From: Parachlamydiales bacterium
Lineage (GTDB): Bacteria > Chlamydiota > Chlamydiia > Chlamydiales > Rhabdochlamydiaceae
Direction: 5' to 3'
DNA length: 64,000 nucleotides
Assembly (NCBI GenBank): GCA_963705295.1
Contig: OY970065.1
Location: forward strand, 640,001-704,000
Below, piece by piece: positions 62,745-63,357 of the stretch. Both the position numbers and the translations under genes were made by a program. The notes beneath the pieces were generated by a model. It was given only the letters and a program-made list of their open reading frames with translations. It was not told the origin of the DNA and ran no database searches. The stretch's first letter is position 1, and every line of letters starts with the position of its first letter.

Positions 62745-62785
62745 TTGTTTTTTCAAGTCACTTTCTTTATCATGTCTGGTGGAGG
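62745..62785 (+). promoter_or_regulatory. Putative sigma70/66 promoter and RBS for the peptide array
   Basis: TTGTTT(62745-50)-N17-TATCAT(62768-73); GGAGG at 62781-85, 8 nt before ATG 62794. Confidence 0.55.
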
Positions 62786-62793
62786 AACGAATC

Positions 62794-62931
62794 ATGTTTG
62801 ATAAGAATGAAGAAGATGACACTTTTGATCTTGATTTAGAAATGAAGAAAGAAGATGAGCTGCAAGCTCAAGATGGGATGGCTTCTAGAGTCGCGCAGAT
62901 TCCATGCAGTACACGTTGTCCTACGAGATAA
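62794..62931 (+). CDS. RiPP precursor-like peptide 1 (45 aa): MFDKNEEDDTFDLDLEMKKEDELQAQDGMASRVAQIPCSTRCPTR
   Basis: Strong RBS; FDLDLE leader motif; CSTRC core. Confidence 0.8.
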   Translation: MFDKNEEDDTFDLDLEMKKEDELQAQDGMASRVAQIPCSTRCPTR

Positions 62932-62934
62932 GTT

Positions 62935-63072
62935 ATGATTGATCAAGACCTTTTAGATCTCGATTTGGAAATTAAAGTGGAAGAGCTATCACCTTCACAA
63001 GATGCGAGAGCATCAAAACTTTTTGGACTACCGTGTAGCAACGCTTGTGGTCCACCACCCACCAAAAGGTAA
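62935..63072 (+). CDS. RiPP precursor-like peptide 2 (45 aa): MIDQDLLDLDLEIKVEELSPSQDARASKLFGLPCSNACGPPPTKR
   Basis: Manual translation (below the ORF-track cutoff); 3 nt after the previous stop; LDLDLEIK leader; CSNAC core. Confidence 0.8.
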   Translation: MIDQDLLDLDLEIKVEELSPSQDARASKLFGLPCSNACGPPPTKR

Positions 63073-63075
63073 AAA

Positions 63076-63357
63076 ATGGATTCAATTCATAATGAAGATC
63101 TTTACGATCTCGATCTTGAAATAAAACAAAGTGCAGAAGAAGTGCAAGATATTGCATCTCGATCGTTCTGTTCAGCTGCTTGTTATCATAAAAAAGAGAA
63201 CATCATGTTTGAAAAAGTCATAGAATCTTTAGAGAATGAACAACTTTTTGACCTCGACATCGAGATCGAAACAGAAAAAGACTTTTCCTCGGATCTCTCT
63301 TTTATCTCTCGAAATGCGGCGAGCTGCTCGTGCGGAAGTTGTTATTTGTCGAAATAG
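63076..63357 (+). CDS. RiPP precursor-like peptide 3+4 (93 aa; two leader-core modules in one frame)
   Basis: MDSIHNEDLYDLDLEIK...IASRSFCSAACYH-KKENI-MFEKVIESLENEQLFDLDIEIE...ISRNAASCSCGSCYLSK. Confidence 0.8.
   Translation: MDSIHNEDLYDLDLEIKQSAEEVQDIASRSFCSAACYHKKENIMFEKVIESLENEQLFDLDIEIETEKDFSSDLSFISRNAASCSCGSCYLSK
63205..63357 (+). CDS. Possible independently initiated precursor 4 (50 aa), in frame within 63076..63357
   Basis: Start context GAGAACATC-ATGTTTGA resembles GAGGAACGAATC-ATGTTTGA of peptide 1; carries its own FDLDIE leader. Confidence 0.55.
   Translation: MFEKVIESLENEQLFDLDIEIETEKDFSSDLSFISRNAASCSCGSCYLSK

Follow-up and report, generated by a model that had tools for sequence, protein, structure and literature searches.

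A probable class I lanthipeptide cluster with four short tandem precursor modules in a rhabdochlamydial genome

We have analyzed a stretch of 64,000 nucleotides (hereafter the window) from the genome of a bacterium of the Rhabdochlamydiaceae, which corresponds to positions 640001-704000 of C1, the single 2.13-Mb contig of the source genome (G000:C1:640001-704000). Close to the 3' end of the window there is a tandem array of small peptide modules and, just past this end, the genes of a LanB dehydratase and a LanC cyclase. Judging from gene content and sequence, the locus is very probably a class I lanthipeptide biosynthetic cluster. Its anatomy comprises four precursor modules, a gene coding for a TPR-repeat NTPase (TPR-NTPase) that follows them without any gap, and an intact lanC-lanB pair in convergent orientation. 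A first-pass annotation of the window had already proposed that the peptides are class I lanthipeptide-like precursors processed by a single set of enzymes, and this proposal is now supported by LanB, by LanC and by the assignment of module 3 to the family NF038155.

The precursor array and its maturation enzymes

All the modules are on the forward strand. The gene lanA1 (62794..62931, 45 aa) has an FDLDLEM box and then MASR-VAQIPCSTRCPTR, and lanA2 (62935..63072, 45 aa) an LDLDLEI box and then RASK-LFGLPCSNACGPPPTKR. The other two modules are found, by reading frame and translation, in a single open reading frame (ORF) of 93 aa (63076..63357). The lanA3 module (63076..63204, 43 codons, YDLDLEI box and then IASRSFCSAACYH) has no stop codon, and its C-terminus, …CYHKKENI, reads through into the lanA4 module (63205..63357, 50 aa from an internal ATG at 63205, FDLDIEI box and then FISR-NAASCSCGSCYLSK). 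The sequence preceding this internal ATG, …GAACATCATGTTTGA, is similar to the one preceding the ATG of lanA1, …GAACGAATCATGTTTGA. The ORF coordinates bear out the first description of the array as four modules in three ORFs with gaps of only 3 nt (GTT and AAA), and the peptide strings quoted there are all correct. The second peptide was said to be missing from the ORF track, in agreement with our database searches, in which the public protein sets returned A1 and the 93-aa ORF and did not return lanA2.

The region upstream of the array (62745..62793, forward strand) contains a GGAGG (62781-62785) located 8 nt 5' of the lanA1 ATG, while the other starts of the array are preceded only by weak purine runs, which is consistent with translational coupling. 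The same region has weak sigma-70-like hexamers, TTGTTT (62745-62750) and, 17 nt apart, TATCAT (62768-62773). Thus, of the promoter-like element and ribosome binding site claimed initially, the latter stands, but the hexamers match the consensus at only 8/12 positions by manual count and were not listed upstream of lanA1 by a promoter scan with a threshold of 9/12, making the array's own promoter weak evidence. We found no terminator-like site 3' of the array, and the ATG of the TPR-NTPase gene abuts the array stop codon (TAGATG, a gap of 0 nt).

The four modules have in common the [F/L/Y]DLD[L/I]E box, a triad [A/I]S[R/K] and a core with Cys-Ser-x2-3-Cys. When they are aligned, D-L-D-x-E and the Ser of the triad are invariant and a Cys is kept. 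Their homology exceeds what is expected by chance. Profiles built from three modules and compared, with default filters, to all 49,139 six-frame segments of the genome recovered the fourth one in every case (E = 4e-11 for A1, 9e-8 for A2 and 1.3e-3 for both A3 and A4), and the next match had E ≥ 0.2. The profile of all four modules found no further match in the genome. The pattern of a conserved leader followed by a hypervariable core, as it was first described, was overstated, since pairwise identity in the leader (63/147, 43%) is barely above that in the core (34/97, 35%); the elements conserved across modules are the box, the triad and Cys-Ser-x-x-Cys. Module 3 reaches 21.5 bits with NF038155 ('FDLD family class I lanthipeptide', cut-off 20) and the complete 93-aa ORF 26 bits, with module 4 below the cut-off at 11.2 bits.

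The two enzyme genes are on the reverse strand, 2.2-5.4 kb downstream and convergent to the array: lanB at C1:705602-708253 (L002 5602-8253; 883 aa, with a glutamylation and an elimination domain; PF04738 3.5e-122, PF14028 6.7e-44) and lanC at C1:708235-709371 (L002 8235-9371; 378 aa; PF05147 6.1e-62). The first-pass annotation was correct in finding no LanB or LanC inside the window. It missed the enzymes because the window boundary splits the cluster, and the downstream maturase that it considered possible exists in the form of a full-length LanB and LanC. Both frames are open with no internal stops, lanC overlaps the start of lanB by 19 nt, and the promoter scan gave a site with 10/12 matches upstream of lanC (L002 9408-9380).

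Among the solved dehydratases, LanB matches PDB 9g04 (2.2e-63), MibB (1.1e-57) and NisB (1.1e-37). Its residues R79/R83/T85, D118, D233 and the Arg384 of the GRF motif align with R83/R87/T89, D121, D299 and the GRF Arg of NisB (4wd9), which we take to be catalytic residues. R703, R742 and H848 align with NisB R786, R826 and H961, the roles of which, together with the use of glutamyl-tRNA, are described in the part of PMC4979651 available to us. Most of the catalytic columns are invariant or nearly so among 39 chlamydial LanBs, and all 36 columns that are invariant in this set are retained. The closest relatives of this LanB have 42-45% identity, and a LanB search of genome contigs gave only four actinobacterial LanBs (25-26% identity). 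LanC matches PDB 8byk (5.4e-48) and NisC (9.2e-31), with YD, GLAHG, WCYG and CHG in register with NisC; GLAHG, WCYG and CHG presumably provide the Cys-Cys-His zinc ligands and the catalytic His.

Core boundary, predicted products and alternative explanations

Judging from what is typical of these families, the [F/L/Y]DLD[L/I]E box of the leader would dock on the RRE-like part of LanB. The enzyme would then glutamylate Ser and Thr residues of the core by way of glutamyl-tRNA and eliminate the glutamate to give dehydro residues, to which the zinc site of LanC would add the core Cys residues, forming thioether rings. Ring A would be formed by the Ser of the triad with the first Cys, and ring B by the Ser that follows the first Cys with the next Cys. 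The resulting peptides would be short (13-21 aa), with two rings, and equivalent to the N-terminal, lipid II-binding half of the gallidermin-type lantibiotics and devoid of the C-terminal half with its aminovinyl-cysteine.

The arrangement Ser-x3-Cys-[Ser/Thr]-x2-Cys corresponds to rings A and B of the epidermin/gallidermin type, which bind lipid II. Only module 3 has it exactly; the spacing is Ser-x6-Cys-Ser-x2-Cys in modules 1 and 2 and Ser-x5-Cys-Ser-x3-Cys in module 4. The Ser-[Phe/Tyr]-Cys-Cys found at the C-terminus of epidermin-type peptides is in none of the cores. In an alignment anchored at the box, x-[A/I]-S-[R/K] of the modules coincides with I-T-S-[K/R], with which the gallidermin-type cores begin. 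Similarly, hhalign of the four modules against seven chlamydial gallidermin-family precursors (probability 64.9%, E = 6.1e-5) pairs AS[RK] with TS[KR] and CSxxC with CTPGC. A profile of these seven precursors alone puts the A3/A4 ORF first among the 49,139 segments of the genome (E = 1.8e-4). The likeness of module 3 to the N-terminus of epidermin and gallidermin, pointed out from the start, is backed by the profile, by hhalign and by the LanB tree described below. On the other hand, the triad was initially taken as the end of the leader, and the profile alignment places it instead at core positions 2-4. The most likely first residue of the core is the one preceding [A/I]S[R/K], and we lean towards the triad Ser as the donor for ring A, in which case A1 and A2 have a Ser before the first Cys, unlike in the earlier parse.

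A less probable boundary, to which we would still give some weight, lies after the triad, which would then be a nisin-type protease site where a trypsin-like or host protease cuts after the Arg or Lys. In all four modules there are 16-18 residues from the box to this Arg/Lys, a spacing close to that of staphylococcal and lactococcal class I leaders, and LanP sites typically have a basic residue at -1. However, such a cut would leave A1 and A2 without any Ser or Thr N-terminal to the first Cys, the search of the genome gave no subtilisin-like protease, and the triad aligns with positions 2-4 of the core in the gallidermin-family relatives.

Several observations weigh against a lanthipeptide cluster. 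Taken singly, A1, A2 and A4 reach no curated lanthipeptide model and the Gallidermin models PF02052 and TIGR03731 match none of the four modules at E ≤ 1. The hhalign probability is only 65%, and BLASTP of module 3 against the precursor of genome G156, one of those gallidermin-family relatives, gave no alignment. Ring A would span 8 residues in A1 and A2 rather than 5, and module 3 has no stop codon. As for the enzymes, no other LanB in a set of 42 from chlamydiae is as short as this one (883 aa, against 932-1069 aa in the rest), LanC (378 aa) is near the lower end of its size range (others 372-505 aa) and Arg280 of NisC is replaced by Met. Of the 139 columns missing from LanB, most fall within a loop of the RRE-like region or in the linker that follows this region, whose strands and helices are kept. 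Searches of the genome for the S8 protease (PF00082) and the C39 peptidase (PF03412), in both cases with matches in control genomes, and for the LanD flavoprotein (PF02441), with matches in 14/14 controls, found none of them, so that the locus offers no candidate for leader removal or export. LanP and LanT are common in class I clusters and not universal. An ABC exporter that adjoins the lan genes of another chlamydial genome (G313) has a homolog with 59% identity at C1:1,090,724-1,092,442, distant from the cluster. Finally, among 1.84 billion representative proteins there were no homologs of the precursors beyond the peptides of this same genome, a weak piece of evidence because small ORFs are often uncalled.

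Some of these features could be accounted for if the locus were a decaying relic, descended from a gallidermin-type cluster that has lost LanD, the second LanC and the transporter and now makes no useful product. Truncated cores and enzymes that seem to be shrinking would fit with this idea, as would the lack of detectable LanD, S8 and C39 genes, the fusion of modules 3 and 4, the gene with dispersed paralogs between lanA and lanB, the in-frame stop in the lanB of the related G170 and the presence of the segment in one genome only. Yet lanB and lanC are uninterrupted and have kept all the catalytic residues checked as well as the 36 invariant columns. All four modules preserve the box, the Ser of the triad and the pair of Cys residues, and lanC and lanB overlap as a coupled operon behind their promoter-like site. 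Besides, a GC content equal to the genome mean indicates that the segment has been in the genome for a while and has stayed unbroken. We consider this explanation improbable. Much more improbable still is that the peptides are not lanthipeptides at all, i.e., that they are acidic, metal-binding or signalling peptides with Cys-x-x-x-Cys that merely happen to be near lanBC. The failure of A1 and A2 to match any curated family would be expected in that case, but NF038155 is defined by the same leader box, which recurs in precursors adjacent to LanB at no fewer than 22 of 40 other chlamydial loci. The gallidermin-type precursor profile also has the A3/A4 ORF as its best match in the genome, and the array adjoins lanBC on a segment gained as one piece.

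If the locus is a lanthipeptide cluster, as we think, one might speculate further that the array makes minimal lanthipeptides with rings A and B only, 13-21 residues that would amount to the head of gallidermin or nisin that binds the lipid II pyrophosphate without the tail. They would be produced with a compact LanB and LanC, in the absence of genes dedicated to proteolysis, export or immunity, and with one double precursor of the type leader-core-leader-core. Such peptides may act within the host cell or the inclusion, either on co-infecting bacteria (defensive symbiosis) or on the septal peptidoglycan synthesis of the producer itself. This is a tentative proposal, and as a whole it is rather unlikely to hold.

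Genomic setting and neighbouring genes

The lan segment was found at the DNA level in none of 18 other genomes of the same genus, in which clpC was matched in 18/18 and mnmA in most. At the protein level, one of the 13 genomes of this genus in our phylum sample has a LanB, located on another contig and belonging to another clade. Five syntenic loci of the genus have mnmA, a hydrolase gene, the gene of a 285-aa protein (in four of the five), an interval of ~1.1 kb and clpC; lanA, the TPR gene, lanB and lanC are absent from all five. In G169 the 1.1-kb interval holds a helix-turn-helix gene and a gene coding for a 185-aa membrane protein. The same interval in the source genome has 6.8 kb and includes the array, the TPR gene, lanB, lanC and one copy of a 165-bp dispersed repeat (C1:709435-709597; L002 9435-9597) located at the clpC edge of the inserted segment. 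There are at least 45 copies of this repeat, with 82-99% identity; it is imperfectly palindromic and matches its own reverse strand. Copies abut both this cluster and the second lan cluster of the genome (see below), others are found for example at C1:86894-87057 and 775774-775936, and weaker ones appear in other genomes of the genus. The repeat has no Rfam match. The GC content is 0.438 for lanB and 0.458 for lanC, and 0.438 for the genome. A recent horizontal transfer, which we considered on grounds of composition, is thus unsupported, and the segment would be an accessory island that is either old or derived from a similar genome.

The TPR-NTPase gene is on the forward strand, with 214 codons inside the window (63358..64000) and the whole gene at C1:703358-705673 (L002 3358-5673). 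It codes for a protein of 771 aa with a transmembrane helix, a P-loop NTPase and TPR repeats (TPR_12 2.3e-34; NF040586 5.4e-62, below cut-off). It has ~10 paralogs in the genome, with 27-61% identity, and none in 41 other lan loci. The nine other sites (e.g., C1:1603800-1605812, 773482-778185 and 608335-613561) have no lan-like peptides upstream (0/9). The family resembles the NCBIfam entry 'FxSxx-COOH system TPR protein', below the cut-off, and in G313 an unrelated NB-ARC/TPR protein adjoins the precursors. The conserved neighbour upstream of the array (61875..62732, forward strand) codes for a membrane-anchored protein of 285 aa that matches neither Pfam nor NCBIfam and has ~10 paralogs in the genome (e.g., C1:410477-411972 and 1131128-1135009) and a homolog in 1/41 other lan loci. 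By eye only, its motifs H-I-D-D-x4-N and D-I-G recall a kinase-like fold. Both proteins were considered as accessory genes specific to the cluster and rejected, since they have dispersed paralogs and are nearly absent from the other 41 lan loci. An Rfam scan of the locus gave only a sub-threshold match to CrcZ that we took as noise.

There is a second class I lan cluster in the same genome, outside the window (C1:87079-91848; L008 9079-13848), with the order lanA, lanC, lanB (76, 461 and 1054 aa, respectively). Its lanA is a single long precursor with a YDLNIEF box and a core rich in Cys and Thr that is unmatched by the four-module profile, and its LanB belongs to a different clade from that of the array. 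The GC content is 0.34-0.38, ~3 standard deviations below the mean of the genome (0.438), suggesting that this cluster arrived more recently. Type III secretion genes immediately precede it, and on its other side is a thermolysin-like M4 peptidase, which was tried as a conserved leader protease and rejected because no homolog appeared in any other lan locus. Profiles of the TLC nucleotide transporters gave six matches in the genome, corresponding to at least four genes (C1:760491-761963, 240351-241826, 221052-222518 and 1651137-1652390), and these transporters together with the type III secretion genes are consistent with an energy-parasitic, intracellular, chlamydia-like lifestyle. The profile PF03504, used as a chlamydial marker, had no match in this genome or in the control genomes and so carries no information on this point. 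As to the occurrence of the array elsewhere, in a sediment metagenome run (word share 0.05) a single contig of 217 nt matches 63093-63177 with 2 differences and is dissimilar to the window upstream, too little to point to a habitat or to a second strain.

Chlamydial relatives and known lantibiotic systems

LanB (PF04738) is present in 41 of the 401 genomes sampled in the phylum, the source genome included, and in 30/212 genera. We fetched 40 LanB loci and scanned them for small ORFs with the leader box. By reading, 22 of the 40 had a convincing precursor ([Y/F]DLD plus a Cys-rich end), and a second motif scan gave two more. A quick IQ-TREE tree of LanB (39 rows, no outgroup, with the partial L051, L076 and L081 left out and the thorough search unfinished) groups the LanB of the array with those of G156, G175 and G121 (SH-aLRT 99). 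All three of these LanBs are adjoined by LanD, and two of the three loci (G156 and G175) have precursors above the Gallidermin cut-offs. With FastTree and the three partial rows added (42 rows), the clade has five members, including G170, with a support of 99.

Precursors that pass both PF02052 and TIGR03731 were found at six loci (G156, G175, G200, G085, G225 and G158; 6/6 tested). These loci (L048, L050, L062, L068, L082 and L086), with a core of the form …ITSKSLCTPGCGNTG..NSFCC, extend the gallidermin family to at least six chlamydial genomes from five families, of which the accessible part of the literature searched has only one row of an antiSMASH table. LanD adjoins LanB in G156, G175, G200 and G085, plus three further loci; it is not in the fetched loci of G225 and G158, and none was found in the source genome. 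The array shares with these clusters the [Y/F]DLD leader box and, for G156 and G175, the LanB clade, and their core start, I-T-S-[K/R]-S-L-C-T-P-G-C, aligns with I-A-S-R-S-F-C-S-A-A-C of module 3. The differences are also clear. The gallidermin-family precursors end in N-S-F-C-C and pass the two models, whereas 0/4 modules of the array do and their cores have 13-21 aa, with four modules at one locus. In addition, G156 and G175 each have two LanC genes along with an AAA ATPase, and an ABC exporter adjoins the cluster of G156.

A different comparison is provided by G170, from the same family as our genome, with six tandem precursors (L051 11587-15375, on G170:C1) that have the leader MQISQ…DLYDLDIELK. 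Here too there is one conserved leader with short, differing cores that carry Cys-[Ser/Thr]-x-x-Cys, and no LanD in the fetched locus, and the LanC is the best match to that of the array (44% identity). In contrast, lanC is located between the precursors and lanB has an in-frame stop. Beyond the box these precursors have no detectable homology to the modules of the array, and one of them reaches 17.4 bits with TIGR03731, below the cut-off. Tree and synteny taken together, the locus is a reduced and multiplied derivative of the chlamydial gallidermin-type clusters.

Class I clusters of the phylum are already in print, which limits the novelty for Chlamydiae that the first-pass annotation had implied. 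In the parts of the sources available to us, Marsh et al. (2010; PMC3091789) reported lanABC in Parachlamydia acanthamoebae, Dharamshi et al. (2022; PMC9666466, Data S10) listed antiSMASH 'lanthipeptide-class-i' regions in Parachlamydiaceae, Rhabdochlamydiaceae, Sororchlamydiaceae and Anoxychlamydiaceae, among them one Parachlamydia region with epidermin as its top MIBiG match, and Maire et al. (2024) mentioned a lanthionine synthetase in Algichlamydia. The clusters of the first two studies are, as far as the portions at hand go, like this one in being of class I, from environmental chlamydiae and predicted only in silico, and precursor arrays, a shared leader box or the present locus do not appear in the parts of PMC3091789 and PMC9666466 examined. 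We found no experimental work in the literature on chlamydial lantibiotics or lanthipeptides, and nothing that describes this locus.

Environmental chlamydiae live as obligate intracellular bacteria and have small genomes, and yet about one in ten of the genomes sampled has LanB. Many of the loci share the YDLD leader, and several lineages have true gallidermin-family precursors together with LanD. With its four short precursors, LanB and LanC in 6.8 kb, the locus described here is close to the most compact of those observed, and therefore a convenient case for studying the activity of chlamydial LanBC and the role of peptides with rings A and B only. A wider question is whether lanthipeptides are behind the protection that some chlamydial symbionts confer on their hosts against other intracellular bacteria, an idea that was raised for chlamydial biosynthetic clusters in general in the section of Dharamshi et al. 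(2022; PMC9666466, section 9) available to us.

With epidermin, gallidermin, mutacin 1140 and nisin, the lantibiotics of Firmicutes, the array has in common a pathway of LanB plus LanC and a leader box of the FNLD type, and module 3 has their spacing of rings A and B. The LanP, LanT, LanD and LanFEG of those systems were not found in this genome (LanFEG was not searched by family), there is nothing after ring B in the cores, and the Gallidermin profiles are unmatched. The host is also different, a diderm intracellular bacterium unlike the Firmicutes that produce lantibiotics. All this indicates a kind of cluster that is known in the phylum, in a form (four short precursors, two of them fused, and no LanD, LanP or LanT) that is a reduced derivative of it and does not constitute a new category.

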